From Ignavibacteriota bacterium (GTDB taxonomy: Bacteria; Bacteroidota; Ignavibacteria; UBA10030; UBA6906): a stretch of 64,000 nucleotides of DNA. Within the stretch, counting starts at the first letter, position 1. Every line of letters starts with the position of its first letter. Positions 1 to 22,419 of the stretch are shown piece by piece. The translations under genes were made by a program, and so were the position numbers. The stretch covers positions 2,720,001-2,784,000 of the forward strand of contig CAWDEM010000008.1 in the NCBI GenBank assembly GCA_963801355.1, written 5' to 3'. The notes beneath the pieces were generated by a model. The model was given only the letters and a program-made list of their open reading frames with translations. It did no database searches and was not told the origin of the DNA.

Positions 1-562
1 GGCCCAGGCCGACAGCATATGGCGCCCCGGTCGTGAGCTGGTGGTCGTCACACCGCCCAAGTACGCCCCGCAGAGTCCAATCCCTGCCCTGCTCGCCGTC
101 ATGTTTTCCGTGCCGGCGGATGGGTCGCCGCTGGTGTTGCCTTCCAATGGCGACATCTACGAGGCAAAAACCACCAAGCCGTTCGCTGCAGGCGATCAAT
201 ACACGTTCAGTACGACGTCCTCGAAGTTCGAGGCATCACAGGCGGCCGCTTCACTCGACCGCATCTGTGTCGTGCCGAACCCGTATGTTGCCTACAGTAC
301 ACTCGAACAACCCGGCCCGACCGCCTTGCGCCGCGGGGAGCCGACGCTGCAATTCCGCAATCTCCCACCGCACTGCACCATTCGCATCTACACGATGGTC
401 GGAGAACTGGTGGATACAATCGAGAAGAACGACGCCACAAGCTACGCCGCATGGCGCCTGCTGTCCTATGAGGGACAACGGCTGGCCTACGGGGTGTATC
501 TCTATCACGTGGATGTGCCCGGAATCGGCGAGAAAATCGGGCGGTTTGCGTTGATCAAATGA
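1..562 (+). CDS. C-terminal part of a large exported protein with 'VVPNPY...FALIK' T9SS-like C-terminal domain (5' end outside the window)
   Basis: Frame is open from base 2 (AQADSIWRPGRELVVVTPPK...). The C-terminus LDRICVVPNPY..LQFRNLPPHCTIRIYTMVGELV..W.LLSYEGQRLAYGVYLYHVDVPGIGEKIGRFALIK aligns by eye with the end of 2865..6395. Confidence 0.85.
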   Translation, partial: AQADSIWRPGRELVVVTPPKYAPQSPIPALLAVMFSVPADGSPLVLPSNGDIYEAKTTKPFAAGDQYTFSTTSSKFEASQAAASLDRICVVPNPYVAYSTLEQPGPTALRRGEPTLQFRNLPPHCTIRIYTMVGELVDTIEKNDATSYAAWRLLSYEGQRLAYGVYLYHVDVPGIGEKIGRFALIK

Positions 563-587
563 AATGGAAAATGCACACGGAGGTTTT

Positions 588-1644
588 ATGAACATCCATC
601 ATCGCAGCCGGGTCCTGATGACGGGCATCCTCGTGGCGGTCCTGACGATCGCCATGGTACTCCCCTCACATGCCCAGCTGTTCCGCAGCACAGCGAAGGT
701 GGGAACGACCGCGGCGCAGTTCCTGAAGATCGGCGTGGGTGCCCGCGCTGTCGGGATGGGAGGTGCGCAGGTGGGCGTCACGGGCGACATCTCCTCCATC
801 TACTGGAATCCCGCCGCCCTTTCGCGGATGAACATCAACAGCGAGCTGATGTTCAACCATGTCAAATGGCTTGCTGACATCAACTTACGACTTTGCCGCA
901 GGGGCATTGCCGATCGGCGAGCTGGGAACGTTTGCCCTATCGGTGACGTCGTTGCGCGTCCCCGAAGAGATCGTCCGCACGGTGGATTTTCCCGATGGTG
1001 ACGGCCGCCGCTGGGACGCAAGCTCCATCGCCTTCGGCCTCTCTTATGCGCGCAACCTCACCGACCGGTTCTCGATCGGGTTCACCGCGAAGTATATCCG
1101 TGAAGCCCTCTGGAGTGAAAGTGCAAGCGGCTTCGCCGTCGATGTGGGTACTCTCTATCTGACCGAGATCCCCGGACTCAGCATCGGTGCTTCGATCGCG
1201 AATTTCGGGACGACGATGCAACTTGACGGCCGCGACCTTCAATTCAATTACGATCCGGACGCCGACGCCGGAACAGGACCCAACAACATTCCGTCCGATC
1301 TCCGGACAGAGTCATTCGATCTGCCGCTGACGTTCCGTATCGGCCTCGCATGGGATCTTTATCCCGCCGACGAGATCCGGACCACCGTCGCCGTGGACGC
1401 GGCACATCCCAACGACAACACCGAGTATATGAACACGGGCCTGGAAGTCAGCTGGAAGGAAATCGTGTTCGGGCGCGTGGGCTACAAGTCGCTGTTCCTG
1501 CGGGATTCCGAGCAGGGACTCACCTGGGGCCTGGGCGTGCACTACGGCATACCCAACGTCGCCACCGTGAAACTTGACTACGGTTTCGCGGACTACGGGC
1601 GGCTGAAAAATGTGCAGTACTTTGAGCTGGGGATACGCTTATAG
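588..1644 (+). pseudogene. PorV/PorQ-family (UPF0164-like) outer-membrane beta-barrel, split by a +1 frameshift near 885 (true pseudogene or sequencing error)
   Basis: ATG 588 follows GGAGG. Signal peptide, then KVGTTAAQFLKIGVGARAVGMGGA..IYWNPAAL..NHVKWLADIN; homology continues in another frame as YDFAAG..AHPNDNTEY..YFELGIRL. Removing one T from AAC-TTAC-GAC restores ..DINYDFAA, matching the paralog's DVNYDFAA. Confidence 0.85.
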
Positions 1645-1681
1645 ACATGCGCAGCATGACGTGCGGGAGCACCTGAGGTAC

Positions 1682-1713
1682 AAGAGCCGCACCGGAGAAC
1701 CGGTGCGGCTCTT
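1682..1713. terminator. Bidirectional intrinsic terminator between the convergent PorV-family genes
   Basis: Perfect 14-bp inverted repeat AAGAGCCGCACCGG-agaa-CCGGTGCGGCTCTT with a T-rich tail on the + strand. Confidence 0.8.
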
Positions 1714-1731
1714 TCTTCCCTCGTCGTGCGT

Positions 1732-1763
1732 GAGATCGCTTCGTCGCTTCGCGACTCGCGAAT
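1732..1763. repeat. Degenerate REP/MITE-like palindromic unit
   Basis: GAGATCGCTTCGTCGCTTCGCGACTCGCGAAT resembles, from memory, the widespread extragenic repeat GAGATTGCTTCGTCGCTTCGCTCCTCGCAATGAC. Single copy in this window. Confidence 0.4.
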
Positions 1764-2798
1764 TTAGAAGCGCACGCCGAGCGACAGGTAGTGAACGTTG
1801 TTCAATCTGCCCCAATCCTGGTAGGCATAGTCCAGCTTCACTTTGAACTCACCGACCACGCGATACTGCACACCAATCCCGGCAGTGAAGCCCTGTTCGG
1901 TATCCCGTTCGAAGAGTGATTTCCATCCGCCGCGCAGGAAGACCATCTCCGTCCATCCGTATTCGACCCCCACATTGAGGTACTCCGTGTTGTCGTTCGG
2001 ATGCACGGCATCGATTGCAGCGGTGATGCGGTTCTCGTCTGTTTTCATGACATCGGCGGCTACGCCCACGCGGAACAGGAGCGGCAGGTCGAACTCATCG
2101 AGCTGGATGTCCGTGTTGATCAGATTTCCTTCAGGTCCGCCCGGCATGGCAATCAAGAGGTTGTCGCGCCCCTCCAGCTTCATTTTGGACCCGAAGTTGC
2201 AGATGCTCGCTGCGAGGCGGAACTCGTTCAAGATGGGGATCTTGTAGACCGTCCCGATGTCGATGGCGATGCCTGCCGACGACATGTTCCAGATGTACTC
2301 GCGCACGTACTTGGCGTTGAAACCGATTGAAAAGCGGTCGGTCAGATTGCGGGCGTAACTGATACCGATCGCCATGGCACCGGCGGTGAACATCTCACCC
2401 GTTCCTTCCGGGACATCCTCCGTGCGCACCATCATGTCATCCATGGATTCAACGCTGACGAATGCGCCGAGCGTGCCGAAGTCCGGCAAGTGCGTGGAAA
2501 AGGCCGCGAAGTCGTAGTTGACGTCGCCAAACCACCGGACGTGATTGAATGTGGCCTCGCTGGCGTAAACGTTGGCCAGCCCGCCGGGGTTCCAGTAGAT
2601 CGCAGTGATGTCATCCGCGGTTGCGGTAAATGCACCCCCCATGCCGATCGCGCGCGAGCCGACGCCGATCTTCAGGAAGGGAGCCGCGGTGGTGCCAGTT
2701 TTGGTCAGATTCTGCGACAAGCCGACCGATGCTGCCAGGCAGAACAGAAGGATTCCTGCCAACATTCTCGGTGTGCGCCTGTGGTCCTGCATATTCAT
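1764..2798 (-). CDS. PorV/PorQ-family (UPF0164-like) outer-membrane beta-barrel
   Basis: ATG 2798 follows GGAGG. Signal peptide; KTGTTAAPFLKIGVGSRAIGMGGA, IYWNPGGLA, HPNDNTEY; ends in LSLGVRF with the terminal Phe typical of BAM substrates. Confidence 0.9.
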   Translation of the reverse strand: MNMQDHRRTPRMLAGILLFCLAASVGLSQNLTKTGTTAAPFLKIGVGSRAIGMGGAFTATADDITAIYWNPGGLANVYASEATFNHVRWFGDVNYDFAAFSTHLPDFGTLGAFVSVESMDDMMVRTEDVPEGTGEMFTAGAMAIGISYARNLTDRFSIGFNAKYVREYIWNMSSAGIAIDIGTVYKIPILNEFRLAASICNFGSKMKLEGRDNLLIAMPGGPEGNLINTDIQLDEFDLPLLFRVGVAADVMKTDENRITAAIDAVHPNDNTEYLNVGVEYGWTEMVFLRGGWKSLFERDTEQGFTAGIGVQYRVVGEFKVKLDYAYQDWGRLNNVHYLSLGVRF

Positions 2799-2864
2799 AA
2801 AACCTCCGTCTGCAATCTCAATGACCGATGTGTCATGCACGCAACCCCATGCGGTGGGCGGGGG

Positions 2865-5800
2865 TCACTTGATCAACGCGAACTTGACGATCTTCTCTCC
2901 GACATCGGGTGCATCAATATGCGCCACATAGACGCCGTAGGCCACACTGAAGCCGTCACGGTTGAGCAGGTTCCAGTACTCACGTGCATAGTCCATGCCG
3001 CTGTCGTGCTCGATCGTCTGCACGAGATCACCGTTGATAGTGAAAATCCTGATCGTGCACTGCGGCGGGAGATTTTCGAAATAGATCCTCCGTTCACCGC
3101 GCGTCGCGCCGGGAAGGCGATTCGTCGGTTCGATGGTACTCAGACCCACATAGGGGTTCGGAACGACGTATATCTTGTCCAGCCGCGAGCTCGCCAGCTG
3201 GAGATCCATCGTCCCGCTTTCGGTGGTCAGCGTGAATGCGTCAACTGACAGGAACGGCCGCCGCGTCTTGATGAACAGGACGTCACCGTCGCTGGGGACA
3301 TGCGAAGTCCGCGACGGATCCTGTGGCTTCGTAATGATGACGCTCCAGGTCGTGGTGTCTGTTCCCACTCCGGCTGCTCCGGGCTTGAACAGCACGATCT
3401 CTTCGCCCGGGTCCCACTGCGTATTCCGGGTCGCGGAATTCTCCACCAGGAATGTCAGGATTCTGTTCGGCGTCCCGGTCGTCACGTCCTTCACAGAGTA
3501 GCGTACAGGAATTTTGACCAACCCGGGGTTCAAGGTCATGGCCGAATCGATATTCCCGGCGGAAAACCGGATCTCGTAGTCCGCCGGCCACAGCCGTTTG
3601 CGGTTGCCGAGAGTCGTGAGACGGGCAGTGAAATCGTAGTTCGAATTTCCCTCCACCCACTCGGACCGCGTCGAATCGAACCTCAACTCGGGATGTTCGT
3701 TGACGCGCAGCTGAATGCCGTCGAACACGGGATTTGAGTCTTCCGCTTTCAGTGCCACACTCCGGAAGATCGGGTAGTACCGGTACTCGATGGTGAGTGA
3801 TCCGTTGTCGGGTATCGCACTCCCGGCGGTACGGCGTATGGATCCCCGATCCAGATTCACCACATAGTCTGTCCCGCGCGTGTATACCGTCCCGCCAGCC
3901 CCCGTGACTTTCAGGAAGCCGTCATCGGAGAGATTGTTGTGCTGCAGTGCGGTGAAGTTCGTATCGTACGGAACAATCGTCTCCTTCACCGGACGTGTAT
4001 TCAGGACGGAATAGTTCTTTGCGTTCTGTCTCTTGCCGTTCACGAGAAGTGTGTCGGCGAAGGTGATGGTGTACTCTCCCCCTTGGATCACCGTCCGATC
4101 ATTCAGAATCCGAAACGTCACTTCGCCGGTCCCGATGCCGTAGTTGTGCGTCACGTTCTGGCTGCCGATCACCGGCGGAACATAGCCGCTTGCCCGTGGG
4201 CCTGGAATGGTCTGGCAGGTGTTCACGTCGAAGCTCAATTGCGATGTAATGGGATCCACGGTGATTTTCTTCGTGGACTCCGTCGGCGGAATGCCGACCG
4301 AATCGCCATGGTCATACGAGACTACAGCATAGTAGTAGGTCTGGCCGTTGACCACCTTGTTGGAATCCACAAACACATGCACGAGTCCTGTGTTGTTTCC
4401 GAGATAGTAATGTACACCCCGATCCTGATAAGCCACCTGAGAATATCCCTTCCAGGGGTCTTCGACCTGGGTTTCCCTGATTTTGTTCTGGTTGAGATCG
4501 ACGTACGGTTCGCCGACGTCATATTTGCCGTTCCCATTGAGATCGGTGTATGGCTCATCGCGCAAGGCAACGTCAAACTTTGCTTCTTTTCCGTTGACAT
4601 CCTTCAACGGCTCAGTCAGGAAGGCGGAGCCTTTGCCGTCGGTCACCGTCTGTATGTCGTTGAATGCAGGATCGGTGCTGCGGTAAATGACGTATCCCTC
4701 GAAGTCTTTTCCTGTCAACGGATCAACGCTTTCCTCTGCGATGGTATCCCAGTACAGCGTCACTTTCTTATCGCCGGCGACGGCGCTCACGTGCGGCGTC
4801 AGGGGCGGCCGGAAGAACTGGTAATTTTTGTTGTAGATCGTCTGGACGGTTTTGGCGGTCGTCAACAGGCCATCCCGATCCTCCGCAAGGAGCATTGCCA
4901 TGGAGATGCGCTTCGTTTCCGCCGGGGCGAGTGTGATATACCCCGATCCAAAAATGAACACGATATCCGATTCTTGCTGTATTGCACCGAAGTTGCGGGG
5001 AATCGAACGGTTCCACATCGACTCATCGTTCGAAATCTTGTCAGAATTCCAGGGCCAGCTGTTGAAACTGGTCAGGCCGATCTGATCCGATTCATCAAGG
5101 TCTGTCAGCTCGAAGTTCGGCTCACCGGGATGCAACGGATCGAGCGAGCCGTCGGCCATGCGGATACCGGCATCGGGGACACCATTCCCCTCACCCTGAT
5201 CTCCGGTGTTGGGGACGCCGTCGACACCGATATCATCCGAGACCGCCAGCCAGTCTTTGTCGTTATCGATGCCGTCATCCTGTCGTTCGTCAACCATGCC
5301 GTCGCCGTCGTTGTCGATGGCATCATTGGGCTTGCCCGGGCTCTCGAGGAATTTGCAGCCGAGATATCCCAGGGCCAGCCCGCGGGCACCTATCATATCC
5401 GGATCCCAGAAATAGACCATGCTGCGGGAGTAGACGGGAACACTCTCAGCGGTTCCGGTCGAATCATACGGCGCGATGAAATAGCCGTTGTCATCATTAT
5501 TCTGAGGATTTCCGCCTCCGAGATCCGGATCGCCATAGATGCCAAAGAAGGTGCTGTCGAGATGGGTCGTGCTGGTATTCGTGATCGTATACACAAAGAA
5601 GATGGTGTTCTCGGCCAGCGCATTGCTCCACTGGAAGGCGCGTCCGTCGACCTGCACTCCGATCCCCTTCCGTGCAGAATCCCCGGGGAAGGGATAGTAC
5701 GGGAATTCCATATTGAACCGGTCATCCATGGACCAGAACACCTCAAGGTCCGAACTCAGCACGTCCTGGGAGAGGTATCCCGGCCACACGTACTTGCCAA

Positions 5801-6395
5801 GGGTGGGGTTGTACCATGCCCGCGGCCAGCTGTCAGGTTTGCCGTCGCCGTTCTTGTCCGGCGCAGGGTTGGAGGCCATGCTCGCCTGGTCAGGATCCGC
5901 GTAGCCGGGAAGCGGCTGCCATTGCCAGAGCGTGTCCCCCGTGGGGTTCACCTCACGCAGTCCGGGATAGTCCCACAGAGCGTCGGAGATAATATGGAAT
6001 CTCTTACCTGGGTTGCGGGTATCTGGAACGGAGGCGCCGACAATCGGACAGAACTGGAACACGTAGTCGAGATTGTGCCAGACGAAGTTGTTCACTCCGC
6101 GGAGGACATCGTATCCGGGAGCAATGCCGCCATAATTGAACAGGGTGACCGCAATCTTGTTGCCGTTCATGAAGTACGACTTGCGGTCTTTCTGGGCATT
6201 CACACCGCTCGTCTTCTCCGGTCCGCCGGGAACTCCCTTGATACGCTGTTCCGCGGTGGGTGATGTGCTTGTTCGGTCAGTCTGCTCACTCGCTCCCTGT
6301 CCGAACAGGGGGAACGTGCAGGCGACCAAAGCGGCGAGTAGTTTCAGCCATCGTGTACCGTCGAATGGTATCATGCGTTTCTCATTGTTCATCAT
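2865..6395 (-). CDS. Large exported protein (1176 aa) with Asp-rich Ca-binding-like loops, an FN3-like module and a 'VVPNPY...KFALIK' C-terminal domain
   Basis: Signal peptide (LLAALVACTFPLFG); DxNxDG/DxDxDG loops (DKNGDGKPD, DNDGDGMVDE, DLNGNGKYD); FN3-like segment VSAVAGDKKVTLYWD..FEGYVIYRS..NGQTYYYAVVSYD; lies between a TBDR and a PorV-family gene. Confidence 0.85.
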   Translation of the reverse strand: MMNNEKRMIPFDGTRWLKLLAALVACTFPLFGQGASEQTDRTSTSPTAEQRIKGVPGGPEKTSGVNAQKDRKSYFMNGNKIAVTLFNYGGIAPGYDVLRGVNNFVWHNLDYVFQFCPIVGASVPDTRNPGKRFHIISDALWDYPGLREVNPTGDTLWQWQPLPGYADPDQASMASNPAPDKNGDGKPDSWPRAWYNPTLGKYVWPGYLSQDVLSSDLEVFWSMDDRFNMEFPYYPFPGDSARKGIGVQVDGRAFQWSNALAENTIFFVYTITNTSTTHLDSTFFGIYGDPDLGGGNPQNNDDNGYFIAPYDSTGTAESVPVYSRSMVYFWDPDMIGARGLALGYLGCKFLESPGKPNDAIDNDGDGMVDERQDDGIDNDKDWLAVSDDIGVDGVPNTGDQGEGNGVPDAGIRMADGSLDPLHPGEPNFELTDLDESDQIGLTSFNSWPWNSDKISNDESMWNRSIPRNFGAIQQESDIVFIFGSGYITLAPAETKRISMAMLLAEDRDGLLTTAKTVQTIYNKNYQFFRPPLTPHVSAVAGDKKVTLYWDTIAEESVDPLTGKDFEGYVIYRSTDPAFNDIQTVTDGKGSAFLTEPLKDVNGKEAKFDVALRDEPYTDLNGNGKYDVGEPYVDLNQNKIRETQVEDPWKGYSQVAYQDRGVHYYLGNNTGLVHVFVDSNKVVNGQTYYYAVVSYDHGDSVGIPPTESTKKITVDPITSQLSFDVNTCQTIPGPRASGYVPPVIGSQNVTHNYGIGTGEVTFRILNDRTVIQGGEYTITFADTLLVNGKRQNAKNYSVLNTRPVKETIVPYDTNFTALQHNNLSDDGFLKVTGAGGTVYTRGTDYVVNLDRGSIRRTAGSAIPDNGSLTIEYRYYPIFRSVALKAEDSNPVFDGIQLRVNEHPELRFDSTRSEWVEGNSNYDFTARLTTLGNRKRLWPADYEIRFSAGNIDSAMTLNPGLVKIPVRYSVKDVTTGTPNRILTFLVENSATRNTQWDPGEEIVLFKPGAAGVGTDTTTWSVIITKPQDPSRTSHVPSDGDVLFIKTRRPFLSVDAFTLTTESGTMDLQLASSRLDKIYVVPNPYVGLSTIEPTNRLPGATRGERRIYFENLPPQCTIRIFTINGDLVQTIEHDSGMDYAREYWNLLNRDGFSVAYGVYVAHIDAPDVGEKIVKFALIK

Positions 6396-6411
6396 AAAGA
6401 TCTCTCACGTT

Positions 6412-6591
6412 CTGTGCGGGTCCCTATGTGGCGACCAGTGCGTTAGAATTCCACCGATGCACCCACACGCACTTCACGAGGTGCGGAATAGTAGCTGGGG
6501 TTGACGAACCACTCGCTGGCAGGATGGACCCCGGGGATTTCTGCCGCGAGCTTGTCCGTCGCCTGTGCGGTCCCCTGTGTGGCGACCAGTG
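6412..6591. repeat. 29-bp imperfect direct repeat (6412-6440 intergenic; 6563-6591 inside the TBDR 3' end)
   Basis: CTGTGCGGGTCCCTATGTGGCGACCAGTG vs CTGTGCGGTCCCCTGTGTGGCGACCAGTG, 26/29 identical. Confidence 0.8.
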
Positions 6592-9205
6592 TATACGTCG
6601 CGCGGCCGGTGTCATCGTACACGTACCGTTCATTCAACGTGTCAAACAGGTTGTAGACTTTCACAAAAGCGGTGAGGCGGACCCCCGACACCGCGAAGGT
6701 CTTGTCGGCAAGCAGGTCGACGCGCGTTTGCGACGGCTTGCGGCCGCTATTGGTTTTCAGATATACCGTTCTCGTGGTAATCTGGGGTGTATACGGGAGT
6801 CCGGTACCAATCCGTCCGACAAGTGTCACGTTCCAGTCGTTTGCTTCACCCACGGTTACGGTGGCATTGAGCGTGTGGACCTGATCCCAGTCCAGATTCA
6901 CGGGCACTTTTTCGCTCTGCCGCCCCGAAGAGAGATCTAGGAAGAACGCATTGGCGTCGGTCTCGTTTCCCTCCGCAACCTGGAAGGTGTAGTCCAGCGT
7001 AGCACCGACGATGTCGCTGGTCGTGCGGCGTTTGGTGAACGAGAGGGTGATGCCTTTGACATTGCTGTAGTCTTTGTTGACGTATTTGTAGTACGTCTCC
7101 TCCCCGCTGATACGGATCTGTTGCAGTGCCAGCAGGTCGCGTACATCTTTGTAGAACCCGGTGACGTTGAAGGAGAGGTTCTCCATCAGCTGCTGCTGCA
7201 ACCCGAGTTCGTAGGTGACCGTTTTCTGCGGGTTGAGGTCGGCATTGCCAAAGGTCGGCGTTCCCGAGGAAAAGCTGTACTTGAAGTTGGGATTCGAGTA
7301 GAGATACGAAAACGGAGGCATCTGGAAGAAATGCCCGTACGAGAAATGGATGATTCCCTTGTCTGTGATCGGGAAGGAAACCCCGACGCGGGGGCTCCAC
7401 TGGTGCTTGCCTTTCGCACGCGCGAGCAGCGCCGCTGGATCCACCGTAGTCGGCAGTGTCGGGCTTATCGGCGAGGGATAGAAAATGTTGGTCGAATAGT
7501 CCGCGTCAGAGGAAAAATAGTCGTAGCGTAATCCGACATTCAGAATGATGCTTTCAAACTCCATCTTGTCCTGGAGGTACGCCGAAAATTCCTTCGGTTT
7601 GCGCTTGTATGCATCGTGATAGGGCGTGCTGGTCGCGGGGATGGTCGGTTCGAAGTACCGGACCGTGTCGCGCAGCACCGAGAAACTCTCGAAATTCAGC
7701 GTGTGCATCTTGTACTCGGCGCCGAACTTCACCTCATGATTGCTGTTGACCTGGCTCGTGAGGTCAAACTTGCCGCCGGTGGTTACTGACCGCTGGTAGT
7801 AGTGCCCGTTCTGTGTCCCGCCCGACAGGAATGTATAGGTCGCCGCCGCCGTGTTCTTATAGTCCGGCTGATAACGGGGATCGGCATGCAGCGTGCCGAT
7901 ATCCAGACCGACGCCGGCCGAGTAGATCACGGGCGATCCGCCGGCATCCAGCAGAGGATACAGATATTGCTTGTAGTCGCTGAGGCTGTACATCCCGCGC
8001 AGCGTGTAGTAGGTTTTGCTGTCGACGGAGTGACGCAACTCGAGTGAGTTCACCAAACCCCATTCTTCGTAGTTGAGGCGGGCATCCGGATTGTATTTGT
8101 AGCTGTGGGAGTACCCCTTGGATGAGGAATTGGAATAGAGCGCATCATACCGGAGTTTCATCGCGGTCGTCGGCTCGAACGACAGCTTGCCGGTCCCGCT
8201 GAATTCCCTGTAGGGATTCATCGGCACAAGTTCATTGTCGCCGGTACTGATCACCGTCATGTCCGCCGGATTCATTGGATTCTTGTAGACATAGTCGGTG
8301 ACATTATGCTCGCGTATGCCGTACAACCACCCCCGCTCCCGGTCCATGCGGCCCGAGAGGAAGAACGTGAGGAGGTCCCCGGGAATGGGCCCATGCAGGG
8401 TCATCTCGGTGACCGTGTGACTGAAGGGTTTGATTTCGTCGATGTTTGTGAAGATCTCCGTGTGATTGCTTACAAAATCTCCGGTATTGAATGACAGGCT
8501 ACCGCCGTACTTGGAGCCCCCCTCCTTTGTGACGGTATTCACGATGCCGCTCAGCGCGTTGCCGTATTCGGCATTGAATGTCCCGCTCACCACCGAGAGT
8601 TCCTGGATGGCATTAGTGGCGATCTGCACAGTCTTGGTGTTGTCGAAGGGGTTGGAGATCGAGACGCCGTTAACCGTGTAGGCGATTTCCGTGGAGCGTC
8701 CGCCGCGGATGTGGATTTCTCCCCCGGCGCCCTGCGTAATGCCGGCTTGCAGCGTAAGGATTTGCGTCACACTTTCCACCGGCAGCGCCTCAATCGCCGC
8801 TGCATCGATGTTGGTATGCGATGAAGTCAGATCTCTCCGGATCATCGGCGCTTCCGCCTGCACCTCGACTGTTTCCAGCGCAATAATGTCAGTTGATAAC
8901 TTTGCATCCAGACGGGTGGTGAAATCCACCGACACCTTCACGTTGGAGAAACGCTTCTTCTGGAACCCGACACCGCCGGCCACAACGGTGTAGGTCCCCG
9001 GCGGGATGTTAATAATAGCGTAGTTCCCTTCGACATCGGTGCTGGCACCCATTGAGGTGCCTTCGATAACGATGCTGATGCCGACCAGGGGCTCGCCCGA
9101 TTCGGCATCCTGCATCCGGCCCGCAATCTTTCCGGTCGTGCCGGAGAGCAGCAGAGTGGGCACCAGGAGCAGCAGGAAGGCCACGAGCATGGATCGTGAA
9201 ATCAT
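6443..9205 (-). CDS. TonB-dependent receptor with N-terminal carboxypeptidase-regulatory-like domain
   Basis: ATG 9205 follows AGGAGG. GTTGKIAGRMQDAESGEPLVG (CarboxypepD_reg-like); plug HIRGGRSTEIAYTVNG..SGTFNAEYGNALSGIVNTVTKEG; C-terminal PREVRVGASVEF. Confidence 0.93.
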   Translation of the reverse strand: MISRSMLVAFLLLLVPTLLLSGTTGKIAGRMQDAESGEPLVGISIVIEGTSMGASTDVEGNYAIINIPPGTYTVVAGGVGFQKKRFSNVKVSVDFTTRLDAKLSTDIIALETVEVQAEAPMIRRDLTSSHTNIDAAAIEALPVESVTQILTLQAGITQGAGGEIHIRGGRSTEIAYTVNGVSISNPFDNTKTVQIATNAIQELSVVSGTFNAEYGNALSGIVNTVTKEGGSKYGGSLSFNTGDFVSNHTEIFTNIDEIKPFSHTVTEMTLHGPIPGDLLTFFLSGRMDRERGWLYGIREHNVTDYVYKNPMNPADMTVISTGDNELVPMNPYREFSGTGKLSFEPTTAMKLRYDALYSNSSSKGYSHSYKYNPDARLNYEEWGLVNSLELRHSVDSKTYYTLRGMYSLSDYKQYLYPLLDAGGSPVIYSAGVGLDIGTLHADPRYQPDYKNTAAATYTFLSGGTQNGHYYQRSVTTGGKFDLTSQVNSNHEVKFGAEYKMHTLNFESFSVLRDTVRYFEPTIPATSTPYHDAYKRKPKEFSAYLQDKMEFESIILNVGLRYDYFSSDADYSTNIFYPSPISPTLPTTVDPAALLARAKGKHQWSPRVGVSFPITDKGIIHFSYGHFFQMPPFSYLYSNPNFKYSFSSGTPTFGNADLNPQKTVTYELGLQQQLMENLSFNVTGFYKDVRDLLALQQIRISGEETYYKYVNKDYSNVKGITLSFTKRRTTSDIVGATLDYTFQVAEGNETDANAFFLDLSSGRQSEKVPVNLDWDQVHTLNATVTVGEANDWNVTLVGRIGTGLPYTPQITTRTVYLKTNSGRKPSQTRVDLLADKTFAVSGVRLTAFVKVYNLFDTLNERYVYDDTGRATYTLVATQGTAQATDKLAAEIPGVHPASEWFVNPSYYSAPREVRVGASVEF

Positions 9206-9233
9206 GAAATCCTCCTGAGGACGGAGCGTACGC

Positions 9234-9268
9234 AAAAAAAGGCCGTGAGTATTGCGGTATTCACGGCC
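9234..9268 (-). terminator. Intrinsic terminator-like hairpin between the FG-GAP gene and the TBDR
   Basis: Minus strand GGCCGTGA-ataccgcaatac-TCACGGCC followed by TTTTTTT. Confidence 0.7.
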
Positions 9269-9309
9269 GGGTTGTGTCAGAGAGCGAGAGTGACAACTTG
9301 TGGAATGGT

Positions 9310-11184
9310 TCACCGCACCAGAATCATCTTCTGTGACTTTTGAAAGTTGCCGTAGTGTAGCGTACAGAAATATGTTCCGCTCACCACAGGCATGTTGGCG
9401 TTGTTGGTACCATCCCACATCACACTGTGTGATCCGTTTTCAATTTCCCCGTTGATGAGCGTCTTCACCTCCTTGCCAAGAAGATCGTAGACAACGAGGG
9501 AAATCCGCTTGGTCACGGGAAGATTGAACCTGATAGTGGTGCTCGGGTTGAAGGGATTGGGATAGTTTTGTTCGAGGACGTAATCATCGGGGATGATAAC
9601 CGTGAGATCCTTGAGTTCGACGCCCGAGGCTCCGGTTCCTTCCAGCACACGGAACACCCACCGAAGGGGATTTGCCACGGCAGTTTTTGCCGTATCGTAT
9701 CCGCTCTTGCTCTGGTTCCAGGTCAGTTTGGTGATTGTTGTGCTGTCCATGTAGGTGTTGAACCAGCCCTGCATGGGCATAAGGAGATCCTGCTTCCCAT
9801 CCTTGTCAAAATCCGTATTCCTGCCCCACAAATGAGCAACTTGAGCCGCCCAGGGTACTTTGGTGGTGTCCTTTGTGCCCAACGAATCTTTGATCGTCAT
9901 GGATTCGATGACGCGCGATTCTCCGCGATACACGAGACTGAGATTCCAGTTTGCCTGGTCACGCTTGTCGCCACCCTGGTATTCCATCGACACGATGTTG
10001 AATCCAAGCGTATTGCTGAAGTTGATGCCGCTGAAGTAAATATTTTTCTTCCCATTCCCGTCAAGATCGCCATATGCCGCACCCAGTGTATTTGCGCTGT
10101 ATGTCTGATTCAGATCTGGATCACCTATGACGCTCCGGAGGTCGAATGCCCGTGCATTGGAGGTGTCAATCTGCGATGTGCTGGATCCTGGATTGTAGAA
10201 CACCATGTGGACTTTTGTTGCGTTCTCACTTGGAGCGGCTCCGTACCACGTCGGGAGGTAAACCTCATCCCTGCCATCACCGTCGATATCACACACAATG
10301 GCGCCCATGAGCGACACAAAGTCATCCGGATCTGTCAGCATGAGGAACTGCTTCCCACCGGTCGTGTCGGGCATAACATAGGTGTTGGTTCCCGTTACTC
10401 TCACGGGAACCACGTTCTTATGGTACCAGCCGTGCAGAAGCAGCTCCTTGTTCCCGACACCATCGAAGTTTGCGGGGATCACGGCGTAGGGCGACCCTTG
10501 ATTGAGATAGTATGTAGCAAGATCGGTCCTGATCAGCTCGCATTCGTTCTGAAAACTTGAAAAACCGGGATTGTCAGTATCCCATGAACCATAAGCGCTT
10601 ATGACATAGTATCTGTCATTGGCGTTGGGCGTAGAGTTATACGCCACGAGAAGTTCATTCTCTCCGTCGCCGTCAACATCAGCGACTTCCATATACTCAA
10701 CGCTCCCGGCCAACCCCGCGATGGGCGGTGAAGAGATGACTTGCGACGGAATCGTACCAAAGTTGTGGCTGCCAACCACGCCGTCCCATTCGAAGACATA
10801 GATCCCGTCGCCACTCACCTGGTAGATGACCTCCTGCCTTCCATCATTGTCGAGATCACCAAAAATGACGGCACGGGGAGTCGATCCGCCTCCGACGATG
10901 GGCTTGGGGGAGGTCCAGACGAGTTCTATGGAGTCGTTTCCCACAACGGAGAAGACGTGCACTCGGCCAGCATAATTGGTGATGGCAATTTCGGCCTTTC
11001 CATCACTGTCTGCGTCATTGCTGAAGCCGCAGGCCCGGCAGGATGCAGCGTTGTGGAGGACGGTATCGAGCGGAGAACCCGGCAGGAGAGGGTAGCTATA
11101 CGCTGTCGCAATCCGGGCAGATTGGCCATATGCATATGCAGAAACCATGGCCGCTAGGAATATCAATGTGGTAATTTTTCGCAT
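9310..11184 (-). CDS. FG-GAP/VCBS-repeat protein with T9SS type A C-terminal sorting domain
   Basis: Signal peptide MRKITTLIFLAAMVSAYAYG; repeats DADSDGKAEI, GDLDNDGRQEV, ADVDGDGENEL, CDIDGDGRDEV, GDLDGNGKKNI, DFDKDGKQDL; CTD LEQNYPNPFNPSTTIRF..SGTYF..KMILVR. Confidence 0.9.
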   Translation of the reverse strand: MRKITTLIFLAAMVSAYAYGQSARIATAYSYPLLPGSPLDTVLHNAASCRACGFSNDADSDGKAEIAITNYAGRVHVFSVVGNDSIELVWTSPKPIVGGGSTPRAVIFGDLDNDGRQEVIYQVSGDGIYVFEWDGVVGSHNFGTIPSQVISSPPIAGLAGSVEYMEVADVDGDGENELLVAYNSTPNANDRYYVISAYGSWDTDNPGFSSFQNECELIRTDLATYYLNQGSPYAVIPANFDGVGNKELLLHGWYHKNVVPVRVTGTNTYVMPDTTGGKQFLMLTDPDDFVSLMGAIVCDIDGDGRDEVYLPTWYGAAPSENATKVHMVFYNPGSSTSQIDTSNARAFDLRSVIGDPDLNQTYSANTLGAAYGDLDGNGKKNIYFSGINFSNTLGFNIVSMEYQGGDKRDQANWNLSLVYRGESRVIESMTIKDSLGTKDTTKVPWAAQVAHLWGRNTDFDKDGKQDLLMPMQGWFNTYMDSTTITKLTWNQSKSGYDTAKTAVANPLRWVFRVLEGTGASGVELKDLTVIIPDDYVLEQNYPNPFNPSTTIRFNLPVTKRISLVVYDLLGKEVKTLINGEIENGSHSVMWDGTNNANMPVVSGTYFCTLHYGNFQKSQKMILVR

Positions 11185-11357
11185 GGGCGCTCCTCGCAAG
11201 TGCGTCTTGGACATCGATGATTTGTTGTACCCATCGTGGAATTCCCCACGACTAGACCCCATCCTGTATCAAGGAGAGATGAATCGTTAGGTTTACAGGG
11301 AAAGGCGATGCGAGACCAGCAAGCACAACAAAAAAGTACTGCTTCGCCCAACGAATG

Positions 11358-12812
11358 TCAAGGGGGGGGCCGCCTCCCCAGCATCGCCAACCCCCCGCCA
11401 ATGGTCACCGTAGCAATCACCCCGATAAGCGTAAACCAGGTCCACGCAACTACGTTCAGCGATATCACCGTGACCATCACGAGAATGCCGCCGATGAACC
11501 CTGCAAGGGCGTCTTCCTGCTTCGGCTTTTTGAAGAGGAGGCCCAGCAGGAAAGTCCCGAGCAATCCACCATAGGTGAATGACGCGATGCTGAGCGCAAG
11601 TTCCACGACGGCCCGGGGTGTATTCATGAAGAAGATCGCGGAGAGCACAAGCATTCCGGCCCAGAGCACGGTAACAATGCGGGAAGCCCGCAATTCCTTC
11701 GCCGGCGTCAGGTCCGCCGCAGCACGCGGTTTGTAGAGGTCAAGCACGGTGGAAGATGCCATCGAACTTATTGACCCGGCAAGCGTTGACAGCGCCGCAG
11801 CAAGCAATCCCGCAATGATGAAGCCGGAAACTCCCGGCGGCAGATCCTCAACAATGAAACGCGGGAAGACTTCATCTGCACGTGCCAGACCGAGCGCTGA
11901 GACCGATGCACCATTGTAGTGGCCGTAGAGGAGCAGACCCACAACCATGAAGAGTGCCATCTGCACAATCACAATGACCCCGCTCCCGATCAACGCCTTC
12001 TGCCCGCCGGCGAGCGATTTCGTGGCAAGGACCCGTTGCACCACAAGCTGATCGGTGCCGTGCGATGCCATAGAGAGAAACCCTCCCCCCAACAGTCCCG
12101 CAAATAACGTGTACGGTGTCGTCCAGAATCCCTCTCCAAACCCCAGGTTGAAAATCTGGAACTTGCCTGCTTCGCTTGCCAGGCGGGTCGCGCCTGCCAG
12201 ACCGCCGGGATCCATGCCTATGAGCACCAGGGCAGCCACGATCGCACCGCCGAAATAGACTACCATCTGCACTGCATCAACCCAGATCACGCCACGCACG
12301 CCGCCGGCATAGGTGTAAATCACTGCCACCAGCGCAAGCACGGCGATCGCGGTCGGATAATCCACACCCATCACGAACTTGAGCGGGATTGCCGTGGCGA
12401 ACAGACGCACACCGTCAGCGGCGATCCGCGTAAACAGAAACACGACGGAGGCCAGGCTCCTGGTCTTGGCACCAAAACGTCTCTCCAAAAATGCATATGC
12501 CGTGGAAAGCTCCCCTTTGTAGTACGAGGGAAGAAACACAAAACTGACAACGATGCGACCGAGCAGATAGCCCATCGTCACCTGCAAGAAATTCAGATTC
12601 GCAATGTACGCAAGTCCGGGAATGCTGATGAACGTGAGCGTACTGGTTTCCGCCGCGACGATTGACAAACAGACCACCCACCAGGGAATCACATCCCGGC
12701 CGAGGAAATAGTCTTTCGCTGATTGTTGCTTCCCTCCCCGCAGCATACCGAACAGGGCAATCGCGATGAGGTAGACGATGAGGATGATGTAATCGAGTGT
12801 GGAGAAGCCCAT
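11358..12812 (-). CDS. Sodium:solute symporter (SSS/SLC5 family)
   Basis: About 13 hydrophobic segments; DYFLGR..PWWVVCLSIVAAETSTLTFISIPG, GGVRGVIWVD, HGTDQLVVQR motifs. Confidence 0.93.
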   Translation of the reverse strand: MGFSTLDYIILIVYLIAIALFGMLRGGKQQSAKDYFLGRDVIPWWVVCLSIVAAETSTLTFISIPGLAYIANLNFLQVTMGYLLGRIVVSFVFLPSYYKGELSTAYAFLERRFGAKTRSLASVVFLFTRIAADGVRLFATAIPLKFVMGVDYPTAIAVLALVAVIYTYAGGVRGVIWVDAVQMVVYFGGAIVAALVLIGMDPGGLAGATRLASEAGKFQIFNLGFGEGFWTTPYTLFAGLLGGGFLSMASHGTDQLVVQRVLATKSLAGGQKALIGSGVIVIVQMALFMVVGLLLYGHYNGASVSALGLARADEVFPRFIVEDLPPGVSGFIIAGLLAAALSTLAGSISSMASSTVLDLYKPRAAADLTPAKELRASRIVTVLWAGMLVLSAIFFMNTPRAVVELALSIASFTYGGLLGTFLLGLLFKKPKQEDALAGFIGGILVMVTVISLNVVAWTWFTLIGVIATVTIGGGLAMLGRRPPP

Positions 12813-12895: not shown

Positions 12896-13249
12896 TCAAT
12901 TCCCCGGGGGTTCGAGCGGGACGCGCGCAGTAACGGGGTGCCACTCCATCAACGTTTTGTAGAACAACAAATTCGTTGCCTTTGCAGGTTGCTCCGCAAG
13001 GTACAGTTCTCCCATCGCCTCACGAAATCGTAGCAGCTCGCGCCGGCGGCTGGTCCACTTGGCATCATAGGTACACAGGTCCAGCAGCTCCATTGCGCGT
13101 TCGTAGCACTCACGGATAGCCCCGGTGGACGCCAACCCGATGAGATTGTGCACGCGGCTGAACTCGCTCGCAATCATTAGTATCTGACGATCCATCGGGT
13201 AAGCCGCCCAGCGTGCGGGAGTCATGCTTTTGTGCCAGAGGGTCACCAT
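12896..13249 (-). CDS. Small all-helical hypothetical protein, translationally coupled to the DUF5674 gene
   Basis: ATG 13249 overlaps the upstream stop (ATGGTGA). HKSMTPARW..QILMIASEFSR..YERAMELLDL..RELLRFRE pattern recalled from DUF5674 neighbours. Confidence 0.75.
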   Translation of the reverse strand: MVTLWHKSMTPARWAAYPMDRQILMIASEFSRVHNLIGLASTGAIRECYERAMELLDLCTYDAKWTSRRRELLRFREAMGELYLAEQPAKATNLLFYKTLMEWHPVTARVPLEPPGN

Positions 13250-13599
13250 GGCAGCTGAATCCAACGCTGGAGGATAGCGCGTAACCGTTCCCGCAGCTCT
13301 TGATTTTCCACCATCAGGCTTCTGTTACCGCTTGCGGGGCGAATATTTATGAGCGAAGTGTATTCAATGAACGGAGGGTGAGCCCATGGATAGAGATTGC
13401 CGCCCCACAGAAATTCCTGCTTCGAACCGTTTTCCAGGAGACGTAACTCATCGTCTGCATGCATTTCCCCACCGAGCGCAACTGTTTCGCGTTCGACATC
13501 GACAACAAACTTGATCATCGAGTCAAACGGATTTCCCCGAAAGCGCTCAAGATCAGGCAGACTCAAGGTGGTGTCTGGTATAACGATAGGGGCATCCAT
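13243..13599 (-). CDS. DUF5674 family protein
   Basis: MIKFVVDVERE.VALGGEMHADDE..LLENGSKQEFLWGGNLYP..IEYTSLINIRP..GNRS matches the DUF5674 pattern as I recall it. Confidence 0.8.
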   Translation of the reverse strand: MDAPIVIPDTTLSLPDLERFRGNPFDSMIKFVVDVERETVALGGEMHADDELRLLENGSKQEFLWGGNLYPWAHPPFIEYTSLINIRPASGNRSLMVENQELRERLRAILQRWIQLPW

Positions 13600-13606
13600 G
13601 TTGAAC

Positions 13607-13635
13607 AAGATACGCCGTTCAGATCGCTGATGCAA
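13607..13635 (-). promoter_or_regulatory. sigma70-type promoter for the DUF5674 pair (probably leaderless)
   Basis: TTGCAT-17 bp-TATCTT, ending 7 nt before ATG 13599; no SD sequence. Confidence 0.55.
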
Positions 13636-13716
13636 CCAGCCGAATCGCCGTTCGACTCGATTCCCTGGTGAGGCAACAGACCAGCCGACGCACAGAAAAA
13701 AAGCTCCCATACACAG

Positions 13717-16966: not shown

Positions 16967-19900
16967 CTAGCGCACGACCCGCAGGCTTCCCAGACCGCTG
17001 GTGGACGAGTAGTTGGCGTCATACATCGCTTCCGCATTCACCGGCGGCAGAACAAACGTTCCCGGCGTCACCGCCCGGACGGCATAGTAGAATTGCTGCT
17101 GCCGCTTTCCTCCGCGGAACGCCGTATAAAGAAGCATCCTGTCGTCACGAATATCCATATAGTCCGGTGTGGCCGGGTTCTGAATGAAGGCGTACGTAGT
17201 TGTTTCCGTGATCCGCGGGTTTTCTATTTCAAAACCCGCCGGCAGGAGATCACTGATCGCAACGTACGCCAGTTTGTCCACGCTGGAGGTAAGCGTCAGC
17301 CGGACCACGAGAAGGTCGTTCTGGCGGACATTCGCAATGTTCACGGCTGAACCGCTGCGATCCAGGAATTCCCGGCGGATCTGCAGATTGCGGTCTTCCA
17401 TCCTGATATTGCCATCCGTCCGGATTCCTTCCAGAGTGATACTATAATAGACGCGACCTGTCCCCTGCAGCGCGATAGTGATGGTTTTTCCATACGGAGC
17501 GAGATCGATTCGCTGTGTACCGCCGGCGTAGGCGAATTTCTCCCCGCCCACGGTTACCGTGCCCGTAACCTTTGTCGCTGACGCCATGCGCGCAGCCTTT
17601 CCAAAGGCAAGGAGTGTGAAGGCATTGTCCTGCGTACTGTACCAGGTATCATGCCGGTAGTTCTTGGAAAGATACTCCATCATCCGCGGGATGCCGGGGT
17701 TACCTGGATCCGTTTCGAGAAGGGTCATGAACATCAGCGCCATTGCACGGACCGGTGAATCGAAATCGCCGCCGGAAGTCCGTGTGGGAGACTCCACGGC
17801 AAATTGCCGCGGAAGTATGTCCGTCGCAGTGCGGCGGTCGCCGGCAAGGGCGAATGCACCGGCCAGCAGGTGCCGGGTGTCGCCGGTCAACAATGACCGT
17901 TCACTTCGATAGAAGTCCATCACCGCACGTTCGGGCCGCCCGGCCAGCGCAAGCGCATAGAGTGCATAGACCGAGCTCTTCGCGGCAATCCGCCGCACGG
18001 TCACACGGTTCGCTTCGTAGGAATAGTAATCTTCCGTCTTTTTGTCCCGCGCAATACCGCCGATCGCATCCAGGGCACGCTTCAACGTTCCCTCCATCAC
18101 CGTATACCCGGCCCGCTGCGCCTCGAAGAGGAAATGCGTCGCATAGACTGTGGTCCAGGGGTTGGAGTCGCTCCCGCCGGGCCAGTAGGCAAACGAACCG
18201 TCATGGAGCTGCATCTCCGTCACCTTGGTGATTGCTTCGTTCACATAATACGAGGGGCTGCCGGATGTCAACGCCGCGGGTGCGATGACCGAGGCGATAT
18301 CCCGGAGATAGATCTGGGGGAACGCCTTCGATACCGTTTGCTCGAGGCAGCCATGCGGGTACCCGAGCAGAGACTTCAGCTCTTTGGCAAAATTCACGAC
18401 GGGGTACGGGCTGAGCGCAACCGAGGCCTTTCGGTTTTGCGGCAGGTACGCATCAGCGATGGCATGGCTGACCGAATTTCCGCCCTCGATGTACCCGGTG
18501 ATCACATCGGTGGCAAACGGTGCGATCGGACGGATGGACAGGTCGGTCGACGATTCCAGCGACTCGCCAAATGCCTTCGTGCGTATCTTGACGGTTGCCT
18601 TGCCGATCGACCTGGTTGCTTTCAGCGCGACAATGGCATGCCGTTCCTGGTTGGCGCCGACTTCCAGGGATGCTCTCTTCTCCTGCGCCACCACACCACC
18701 GGACGTCTCAACATCGAACATCAGGGATGCAGGAGTGGCGGTGGTGTTGAATGCCGTAAGCGTCATCAGCACGGAGTCGCCCGGGCTCATGAACCGCGGA
18801 AGCCCTGGTGTCACAACGACCGGATCGGCCACTTTCATCGCCTGTTGTGCTGAGCCGAAGCGGTTTCCTTTGTAGGCAAACGCCATCAATCGTACTTCGC
18901 CGCTGAAGTCCGGAATGTCCAACATGATATCGGTCCCGCCGCTCCCCTTTGATTGTTTGATGCCGGACCAGAGAGCCAGCGGCTTGAACCGTTGGATGCC
19001 CAGCGGGTTCGTCTTCTTCCCCATTTCGGCCTCGCCCCCGCCGGTGGCGCTCCGCTGTTTCCCCTTGTCAGGTTCGGGGAGCAGGTGTTTGAAGAAGTCG
19101 GCCGTTTCCGTTTCAAGCGCCTTCCGCGCATAGAAGAAGCCGTAGGGATCCGGCGTCGCGTAGTTCTTCACCTGGCATATCCCCTCGTCGACAGCTGCGA
19201 GAGTCAGGTACACGTTTTCCTCTTTGCCGGTCACCACGGTGACCTTCTGCCTGGTCCTCGGCCGGATCTTTTCCGGTGCCTGAATTGTCACATCGATCCG
19301 GTTGGATGGCTTCTCGACCAGCAGGGGTGCGATACCATGTCCGGCCATCAAGGGGATATGCATGTCGGTTATTTTGCGGAAGAGTACCGCCGTCACATAG
19401 ACGTTCGGGAGGAATTTCTCTTCCACCGCGATGTCCGTCGATGCAGCGTTATTCATGACGTCGAGGTAGCGATAGGTGAACAGCCCGTTGCGCTCGACTG
19501 TCACCAGCAACTTGCCGCTGAACGGTGTCTGGAAGAGCACCCGGGCCTTCTCGCCGGGAGCATAGATCTTCTTGTCCAGGATGATTTCGACCCGCGCTTC
19601 CGGATCCACCTCGAACGATGTGAGATCCGACGTTCCCCAGCTGTAGGCATAGAACTGGAACTGATTGTACCCGGTGTCTCCCGCCTTTGTCACGCGAACC
19701 ACATAGTCGCCCGAACGGGGCGCGGTGTACACAACGTCGATGGGTTCCTTGCCGAGCGTGACCACGTCGCTGCGGACCAGGATTTCGCGACGTTCGGAAA
19801 CGTACCGGAGGGTCTTGGTGTCCGGATGCTGCCGGAGCACGGAGTGCCACTCGTGCCGTATGATATCCACCTTCGCGGCAAACCCCGGGATGGGTTTGTC

Positions 19901-22408: not shown

Positions 22409-22419
22409 GACTGCGCCTT

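Follow-up and report, generated by a model that had tools for sequence, protein, structure and literature searches.

In the SusC/SusD (RagA/RagB) systems of Bacteroidota polysaccharide utilization loci, the gene directly downstream of a TonB-dependent receptor (TBDR) is a constant partner that diverges along with it; the pair occurs in many copies per genome, and what surrounds each copy (enzymes, regulators, inner-membrane transporters) serves a single substrate. Other, non-SusC TBDRs are accompanied by an adjacent surface protein of a different family (BtuG, XusB, HmuY, DUF4876 and others) that is proposed to bind the receptor's outer face; the partners described in the accessible part of the source are lipoproteins without a C-terminal domain (CTD) of the type IX kind or a dedicated barrel (bioRxiv 10.1101/2023.03.17.533168). 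In type IX secretion (T9SS), type A cargo has PorV as its shuttle and type B cargo is carried by cognate ones, according to the available portions of two papers (PMC5562754, PMC12618676). PorU on PorV and PorZ on PorQ, as presented there, are CTD-retaining cargo on PorV/PorQ-family barrels at the surface (PMC5562754) and single housekeeping parts of the secretion machinery. Type B cargo such as SprB is encoded by a single gene followed by a gene for a private PorP/SprF barrel (PMC12618676, same limit).

The locus described here lies in a 64,000-nucleotide stretch (the window) of a complete Ignavibacteriota genome and combines a TBDR, a large protein (LP) and a PorV/PorQ-family barrel. It shares the SusC/SusD traits listed above and, with the BtuG-type pairs, a non-SusC receptor next to a predicted surface protein of another family; its single LP gene followed by a private barrel gene has the layout of type B cargo, and LP would sit on its barrel with its CTD retained, as PorU and PorZ do. 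It differs from SusC/SusD in that the TBDR falls below the SusC cut-off and LP is a non-lipoprotein of 630-1230 aa, all-beta rather than helical, with a T9SS-type CTD and its own barrel, and the last two features, with the lack of a conserved lipobox, also set it apart from the described non-SusD lids. It differs from PorU:PorV and PorZ:PorQ in having 17 paralogous pairs, each tied to a transporter, and from SprB/SprF in its PorV/PorQ barrel, a CTD that does not score as TIGR04131, and its linkage to a TBDR.

Five minus-strand ORFs encode an SSS symporter, an FG-GAP protein, the TBDR, LP and the barrel (Table 1), and these are the five co-oriented genes, correctly placed, of an earlier note on this DNA. 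The likely start of the TBDR is 9205, downstream of AGGAGG. Between the cassette's barrel gene and a convergent second PorV gene lies an inverted repeat that is likely a terminator common to both; a promoter/terminator consensus scan found nothing above chance, and the repeat was not among its predictions. The second barrel belongs to another, convergent trio, absent from the earlier note, which occupies positions 1-1644 of the window (plus strand) with its end and whose LP is 37% identical to the window LP.

Table 1. Features of the locus, by position in the window
Feature	Position	Strand	Basis or remark
Sodium:solute symporter (SSS), 484 aa	11358..12812	-	TIGR00813, 207 bits, over cut-off
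FG-GAP beta-propeller with type A T9SS CTD	9310..11184 (longest ORF from 11262)	-	PF13517, TIGR04183 over cut-off
TBDR: CarboxypepD_reg, plug and barrel	6443..9205 (longest ORF from 9418)	-	PF00593, Plug, CarboxypepD_reg
LP, 1176 aa	2865..6395	-	Signal peptide, beta-supersandwich, FN3-like, further beta domains, distinct CTD
LP residues ~68-530, beta-supersandwich	4806..6194	-	Predicted model and fold matches
LP residues ~531-745, FN3-like domain (hairpin insertions conserved)	4161..4805	-	Model and family profile
LP residues ~1061-1176, CTD	2868..3215	-	Helix and seven strands, VVPNPY first, FALIK last
PorV/PorQ-family outer-membrane barrel, the cassette's own	1764..2798 (longest ORF from 2840)	-	NF033709
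Perfect 14-bp inverted repeat, 4-nt loop	1682..1713	.	Read by eye, between two convergent PorV genes
PorV/PorQ-family barrel of second trio	564..1644	+	Two frames, split near 860-1000
LP of second trio, C-terminal end	2..562	+	1180 aa whole; gene start upstream of window

The three-gene unit and its neighbors

The genome carries 17 trios, 15 ordered TBDR-LP-PorV and 2 permuted. Among 65 testable loci drawn from Ignavibacteria, Rhodothermia, Calditrichota, Marinisomatota and other lineages, LP was flanked by both TBDR and PorV in 63, so the arrangement is not due to chance and the synteny that the earlier note wanted checked is intact. Counted separately, the TBDR lay directly upstream of LP in 67/69 genome loci and in 46/47 loci of an independent metagenome set, with PorV adjacent in 72/72 in each. 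Over 117 trios, the similarity matrices of the three genes gave correlations of 0.86-0.88, where shuffling reached 0.18 at most; for 12 paralogous trios within this genome the values were 0.54-0.76, and the barrel co-diverged with the CTD alone at 0.79. Any operon copied as a unit would show such co-divergence, so it is no proof of binding. No natural fusion of LP with PorV or TBDR domains was present among 270 LP homologues scanned. We conclude that the conserved unit is almost certainly TBDR, LP and a PorV/PorQ-family barrel.

The FG-GAP gene is a clade-specific accessory that marks the window clade only, being present at 33/54 of its loci versus 0/63 others. Its propeller has six DxDxDG loops, and a fold search returned generic propellers (Z 26-29), with one bacterial lectin among many ties. 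The symporter, which had been assigned inner-membrane uptake for the cassette, was rejected as a core member, as its orthologue adjoins a trio in 1/38 loci and 1/20 further regions. This orthologue is single-copy, common in the class and elsewhere usually found after a DNA ligase / unknown / STAS block.

On TIGR04056, the SusC model with a cut-off of 368 bits, the window TBDR reached only 58 bits, none of 39 matches to this model in the genome passed the cut-off, and the SusD families PF07980, PF12771 and PF14322 were all absent; the positive controls of both searches worked. The lack of a SusD gene after the TBDR, already remarked on, thus extends to the whole genome. In a class sample, LP was found in 48/49 genomes and SusD in 13/49, with 1-3 matches each. 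Many Rhodothermia-type genomes have SusD and LP together, and LP is therefore not always a SusD replacement.

The trios lie in catabolic loci dedicated to particular substrates and very probably serve nutrient uptake. Polymer-degrading enzymes adjoin 12 of the 16 other cassettes of the genome, and LP homologues occur at loci with enzymes for glucans (alpha and beta), polymers of uronates, peptidoglycan and cyanophycin, a polypeptide, with cyanophycinase/DcuC at 18/26 loci and starch enzymes at 6/9 loci of their clades. The window trio stands at the end of a ~52-kb peptidoglycan-salvage region. Peptidoglycan genes lie near 27/54 window-clade trios versus 3/63 in other clades, a comparison in which the markers were mostly picked from the window clade's own loci and flank lengths were unequal; the remaining half of the window-clade loci have no such marker. 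From the salvage region and the clade counts, muropeptide uptake is the best guess, and peptidoglycan fragments are a reasonably probable substrate of the window copy. One cultured Marinisomatota member depends on external muropeptides, according to the available part of its description (PMC11652737), which does not imply a trio in that member's genome.

The CTD and its private barrel

The cassette barrel reached 221.6 bits against NF033709 (cut-off 90) and did not reach the equivalog cut-offs of PorV, PorQ or PorV2. The LP CTD is a subtype of its own, with scores of 89-121 bits for its 17 copies in the genome, 69 for PorU and at most 54 for ordinary type A cargo. The type A model TIGR04183 did not match the window LP, the genome's type A CTD profile matched 0/17 LPs, and the NYPNPF motif occurs in 0/17 LP CTDs versus 151/193 type A cargo of the genome; the FG-GAP protein, unlike LP, fits type A, with a TIGR04183 CTD and NYPNPF. 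Among NCBIfam CTD models, the only matches were weak ones, of LP to PorZ and of the paralogue LP to PorU. The SprB/SprF comparison made in the earlier note appears to have picked the wrong family: the barrel belongs with PorV/PorQ, the CTD gained no type B score and none as an ordinary type A domain, and PorU:PorV and PorZ:PorQ appear, by analogy, to be the better precedent for anchoring. The same note's dedicated PorV was borne out, each LP keeping its own PorV-family barrel.

SprA, PorU and TonB are all encoded in the genome, where a PorU-PorV pair apart from the trios lies close to sprA. The TIGR04131 CTD and the PF11751 barrel (PorP/SprF) were not found in a genome search in which no positive control rang, and GldM and GldN gave no match in genome searches that likewise lacked a positive control. 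Covariation between CTD and PorV (MI-APC, 169 pairs, effective 140) had a top z of 6.5, against at most 6.0 for neighbour-swapped and 5.9 for random pairs.

LP may be a binding protein that its private barrel merely shuttles from SprA, to be processed by PorU or left loosely nearby, enriching substrate in the manner of SusE/SusF with no lid or fixed TBDR complex. Shuttling is what the accessible text describes for PorV with type A cargo and for the cognate barrels of type B cargo (PMC5562754, PMC12618676), PorU is encoded in the genome, and the permuted order of 2/17 cassettes also fits. We nevertheless regard this as unlikely, because LP, unlike the ~200 type A cargo proteins, stands beside one TBDR clade at nearly all loci and diverges in step with it, and because its CTD lacks NYPNPF and weakly matches PorZ, as that of the paralogue does PorU. 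Gene context and fold together suggest that LP is probably held by its own barrel.

Fold of the large protein

LP belongs to a family of 2238 clusters (50% identity, E<=1e-10). The window LP had no Pfam match at E<=0.05 and no match to PDB sequences at E<=1, none of the LPs matched Pfam, and an ESM Atlas search returned unnamed clusters only. A signal peptide is present without a conserved lipobox; a regular expression, rather than SignalP, picked out a lipobox-like motif in 3/116 full-length orthologues. The predicted model of the window LP is nearly all beta, with few and short helices, and runs from a beta-supersandwich through an FN3-like domain and other beta domains to the distinct T9SS-type CTD. 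The family profile of the FN3-like domain matches 13/17 paralogous LP loci of the genome. This domain and three DxDxDG-type loops agree with what had been read from the sequence, and an Asp-rich insertion (residues ~353-440) lies inside the supersandwich.

In fold searches the supersandwich best matched the N-terminal domains found in dextran dextrinase, glucoamylase and GH94 phosphorylases (Z 18-21, ~250 residues aligned at rmsd ~3 Å), and the fold matches of LP rest mainly on this region, not on the middle or C-terminal domains. PorZ, at the top of one Foldseek list, was rejected as a fold relative (TM 0.09, rmsd 32). In the best-match enzymes, catalysis takes place in an (alpha/alpha)6 barrel and the supersandwich is the N-terminal domain. 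The LP model has no such barrel of the GH94/GH15/GH116 type, which, together with loci that already encode their own enzymes and span too many chemistries (glucans, uronate polymers, peptidoglycan, cyanophycin) for a single active site, makes it quite improbable that LP represents a new family of surface enzymes with a catalytic supersandwich as in GH174 or some lyases and epimerases, cutting or modifying polymer beside the TBDR like SusG rather than acting as a lid. Weaker matches to GH174 endo-fucanase (Z 15.4), PL26 lyase (Z 14.2) and mutarotase-like proteins (Z 13-15) do point toward an enzyme, as do the acidic residues of LP, many of them invariant and several at positions conserved across both clades aligned.

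That the barrel is a FadL-like channel or TBDR assembly factor and LP a structural or adhesive protein unrelated to uptake is very improbable: weak barrel matches to FadL-type models and, at E 1e-4, to BamG, and the Asp-rich loops, common in adhesins, are countered by far higher scores on PorV/PorQ models, by the nearly constant place of the barrel gene directly after the gene with the CTD, by its co-divergence with that domain alone, and by trio clades that track catabolic neighbors.

A proposed uptake module

We lean toward the view that, in FCB lineages where SusD genes are few or absent, TBDR, LP and barrel work at the outer membrane as a single uptake module in place of SusC/SusD. LP would leave through Sec and next, directed by its CTD, through the SprA translocon, to be collected by the barrel encoded beside it with its CTD kept; a retained CTD would in turn keep LP on the barrel, like PorU on PorV and PorZ on PorQ in the accessible parts of the sources (PMC5562754, PMC12618676). 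The supersandwich would bind oligomers freed by neighboring secreted enzymes and LP would pass them to the cognate TBDR for TonB-driven import, every paralogous trio having its own substrate, and the FG-GAP propeller may be an accessory surface binding protein beside the window trio. We infer capture by LP from gene context and fold, and on the same grounds the case for LP directly capping the TBDR is evenly balanced. A complex prediction for a smaller paralogous pair in place of the window pair (cassette L013, TBDR barrel 226-820 and LP supersandwich 45-404), made from 36-row alignments and without folded controls, scored 0.01 and 0.24 against a mark of 0.32, which speaks neither for nor against contact. 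The idea in the earlier note of a T9SS-exported stand-in for SusD is thus upheld in the fixed trio, the SusD-free genome, the private barrel and the substrate-specific loci, whereas the cap itself is putative.

A literature search, mostly without subscription papers and supplements, found no description of the trio; such a cluster may be drawn in Fig. S1 of PMC8861115. Tentatively, and with slightly more doubt than belief, we propose that most non-Bacteroidia FCB lineages have a second, undescribed three-part polymer importer. Its lid would be a supersandwich protein exported by T9SS, with a CTD of a third class clamping it to a private PorV-family barrel next to the TBDR. The importer would handle glycans, cyanophycin and peptidoglycan fragments, with the window clade as a peptidoglycan scavenger that also occurs in Marinisomatota.

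Polysaccharide utilization loci are normally detected via SusC/SusD genes, and this genome and most of its class would therefore be scored as free of them. The trio offers a replacement marker for such loci and puts a name on a large protein family that lacks annotation. For type IX secretion it hints at a third kind of CTD-barrel pairing, one that links T9SS directly to TonB-dependent uptake, and its peptidoglycan-linked clade suggests a route by which cell-wall debris is taken up by bacteria of sediment, wastewater and the sea.

The trio in the host genome

All five co-oriented genes reported by the earlier note are present: an SSS symporter, an FG-GAP protein, a TonB-dependent receptor (TBDR), a large protein of 1176 residues and a PorV/PorQ-family barrel. 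The large protein has no Pfam match in a profile scan and no sequence relative in the PDB, and its named relatives are for the most part Ignavibacteria, probably the host's own class. Searching the host genome (4.8 Mb, 100% complete) with a profile of its last 110 residues, we recovered 17 proteins at 89-121 bits; below these, PorU and a further large protein score 69-73 bits and ordinary cargo scores 54 bits or less. A barrel of the PorV family and a TBDR of one subfamily accompany all 17 genes, in the order TBDR-large protein-PorV in 15 trios and permuted in two. None of the 17 large proteins matches Pfam, and none of their type IX C-terminal domains (CTDs) carries the NYPNPF motif, versus 151 of 193 type A cargo proteins. 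Frameshifts, which may come from the assembly, affect genes in three of the 17 cassettes. A 14-bp inverted repeat sits between the window trio and its convergent neighbor, and this tail-to-tail arrangement recurs at loci L108 and L109.

The missing SusD holds genome-wide: three models found none in the host, with a working positive control, and no host TBDR passes the SusC cut-off (the window's scores 58 bits against 368). SprA, TonB and PorU with its own adjacent PorV are present. Searches run without a positive control found no type B CTD, PorP/SprF, GldM or GldN; with the last three undetected, another motor may drive type IX secretion here. Type A CTDs occur on about 200 proteins (204 matches), which makes the secretome very large for a genome of 4.8 Mb.

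Features by location (G000:C8, host genome contig; L numbers, loci in the host or elsewhere)
Feature	Location	Remarks
Window cassette	window 1764..12812	likely start codons: FG-GAP 11184; TBDR 9205; barrel 2798
Second trio, converging from left	window 1-1644 + L015	next to window cassette; FG-GAP, TBDR and PorV frameshifted (barrel gene split over two frames), large-protein gene intact; either assembly error or decay
Small gene, DUF5674 gene	window 12896-13710	upstream of SSS
1818-aa alpha-2-macroglobulin-like lipoprotein, then 778-aa gene	window 16967-24756	labels by sight; 778-aa gene probably the usual PBP1C partner
Peptidoglycan-salvage region, ~52 kb, three trios	G000:C8:2680337-2732812 (L238, L014, L015, window 1-12812)	NagX-like gene (by sight, no Pfam match); serine beta-lactamase-fold protein; two amidase_3 proteins; MFS permease; NamZ; BadF-family kinase; GHL10; NlpC/P60 with SH3; enolase-family epimerase; all beyond the two upstream trios
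sprA near porU-porV	G000:C8:964208-986827 (L017, L107)	
1903-aa PorU-like protein	G000:C8:292552-298263	CTD score between large-protein and type A classes; gene follows a row of glycosyltransferase-like genes (by sight)
Starch cassette	L010	amylase, CBM20, LacI
Cassette	L004	GH94, glycoamylase
Pectin cassette	L006	GH43, pectinesterase, GH28
Alginate cassette	L008	alginate lyase, chondroitinase B
Cassette	L012	GH38, ABC transporter
Cassette	L013	peptidase S51, M20, DcuC
Cassettes	L003, L011, L014	amidase or NlpC/P60
Second, longer FadL-like barrel	L006:5737-7257; L008:5848-7296	directly 3' of PorV-family gene
PPIC-type rotamase	L010:14990-16696; L009:6333-8021; L085	adjoins trio in starch clade and one neighbor; possibly dedicated folding helper
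S51/DcuC-linked trio clade	L013:6334-18581; L131-L178	S51 of cyanophycinase family

Conservation and co-divergence

The earlier note had proposed counting adjacency across Ignavibacteria, Calditrichota, KSB1 and Marinisomatota. We used 79 loci on genome contigs, drawn from the best 80 of at least 591. The barrel adjoins the large protein in 72/72, a TBDR is its immediate upstream neighbor in 67 of the 69 with enough flank, and both flank it in 63/65. Record titles include those four groups as well as Kryptonia, Rhodothermales and Stahlbacteria. Another 80 independent metagenome loci, retrieved with the L013 family, gave 46/47 for the upstream TBDR and 72/72 for the barrel. In a phylum sample of 201 genomes, the large protein matched in 114 and SusD in 112. 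Family tallies added up over the window's class come to 48/49 and 13/49 (1-3 SusD matches each), whereas two other families are reversed (large protein 1/12 and 0/13, SusD 11/12 and 13/13); neither gene occurs in a further family (0/39), and both occur in another (25 and 33 of 33 genomes). Because kin are not independent, this distribution is a pattern and not a test.

Pairwise similarities across 117 complete trios correlate at 0.88 for TBDR-large protein, 0.88 for TBDR-barrel, 0.86 for large protein-barrel and 0.79 for CTD-barrel, with shuffled maxima under 0.2; the 12 intact host trios give 0.54-0.76. This shows that the trio duplicates and diverges as one unit, but not that its proteins touch. 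The barrel might be a shuttle only, with the large protein forming no fixed lid, which we consider unlikely; retention on a barrel has precedents in PorU:PorV and PorZ:PorQ (PMC5562754), and type B/SprF pairs provide one for a cargo with a private barrel (PMC12618676).

The accessory genes are less constant. Within the TBDR clade of the window, supported at SH-aLRT 98 in a quick tree, FG-GAP occurs at 33/54 loci, against 0/63 elsewhere; its protein is modeled as a beta-propeller plus a CTD, the latter of the ordinary type A, and a fold search returned no telling match. The SSS protein had been proposed as the inner-membrane partner, which as a conserved role found no support: its orthologue adjoins a trio at 1/38 loci with enough flank and in 1/20 further regions. 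It matches 52 of 81 class genomes, as a single copy, and usually lies 3' of a DNA ligase/unknown/STAS block (most of 29 loci; labels from one representative). We conclude that SSS is no core part of the trio, and it may serve this locus in the host.

Fold of the large protein

An AlphaFold2 model (62 sequences; pLDDT 83, pTM 0.78) places a beta-supersandwich at about residues 68-530, followed by the FN3-like domain that had been noticed by eye, further beta domains and the CTD. The top matches are N-terminal domains of dextran dextrinase (Z 20.5, rmsd 3.1, 257 aligned), glucoamylase (Z 19.5) and GH94 phosphorylases (Z 17-19), with GH174 fucanase (Z 15.4) and mutarotase-like proteins (Z 13-15) below. 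These resemblances could point to an enzyme, but the top matches possess a helical barrel, the catalytic part in that group, and the model has none; we give this reading slightly less room than the shuttle. The family of the window protein can be aligned with that of L013 over the full length (hhalign probability 100). In short paralogues (630-830 aa), the N-terminal domain, FN3 and CTD all appear to be retained, from scores weak for several. In some homologues (proteins P0173, P0201, P0242, P0250, P0254 and P0255) the CTD is of the ordinary type A and not of the large-protein type, which means that normal cargo can carry the supersandwich too.

Substrate context and proposed function

Polymer-degrading enzymes lie beside 12 of the 16 other host cassettes; the neighbors of L001, L007 and L016 suggest no clear substrate. 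Directly upstream of the window are two more trios, then the other genes of the peptidoglycan-salvage region. In other genomes, genes found around orthologous cassettes are amidase_2, golvesin-domain, S13, AmiA-like, M23, M15, GHL10, NagB and MurQ-like ones. Clades track substrate, by markers drawn largely from the very loci counted: peptidoglycan at 27/54 loci of the window's clade versus 3/63 others (2/28 with comparable flanks; the BLAST screen overlooked one known amidase locus, L011), cyanophycin at 18/26 of a second, a candidate cyanophycin uptake system, and starch at 6/9 of a third. Beside such neighborhoods, a role unrelated to uptake is very improbable.

The trio is real, widespread and undescribed within the literature searched; the earlier note knew of no description either. 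A candidate that fits it appears in a published table for the Rhodothermus marinus xylan locus (PMC6987092, Table 1): after a TBDR come three hypothetical proteins, of which the first and the third bear a Por CTD, and a SusC/SusD pair is listed separately alongside. Passages on the Ignavibacterium album beta-1,2-glucan cluster mention just a TonB-dependent transporter (PMC8861115), and a term search of the Caldithrix genome paper (PMC5317091) returned no mention of SusC, SusD or type IX secretion.

We propose that SprA would export the large protein, whose CTD would be retained on the cognate barrel, probably much as PorU is on PorV. The large protein's supersandwich would bind substrate and hand it over to the TBDR. 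The lids described in preprint 10.1101/2023.03.17.533168 are lipoproteins; a lipobox-like pattern occurs in 3/116 orthologues of the large protein. Our verdict is that the trio probably works like SusC/SusD, though it stands outside that family.
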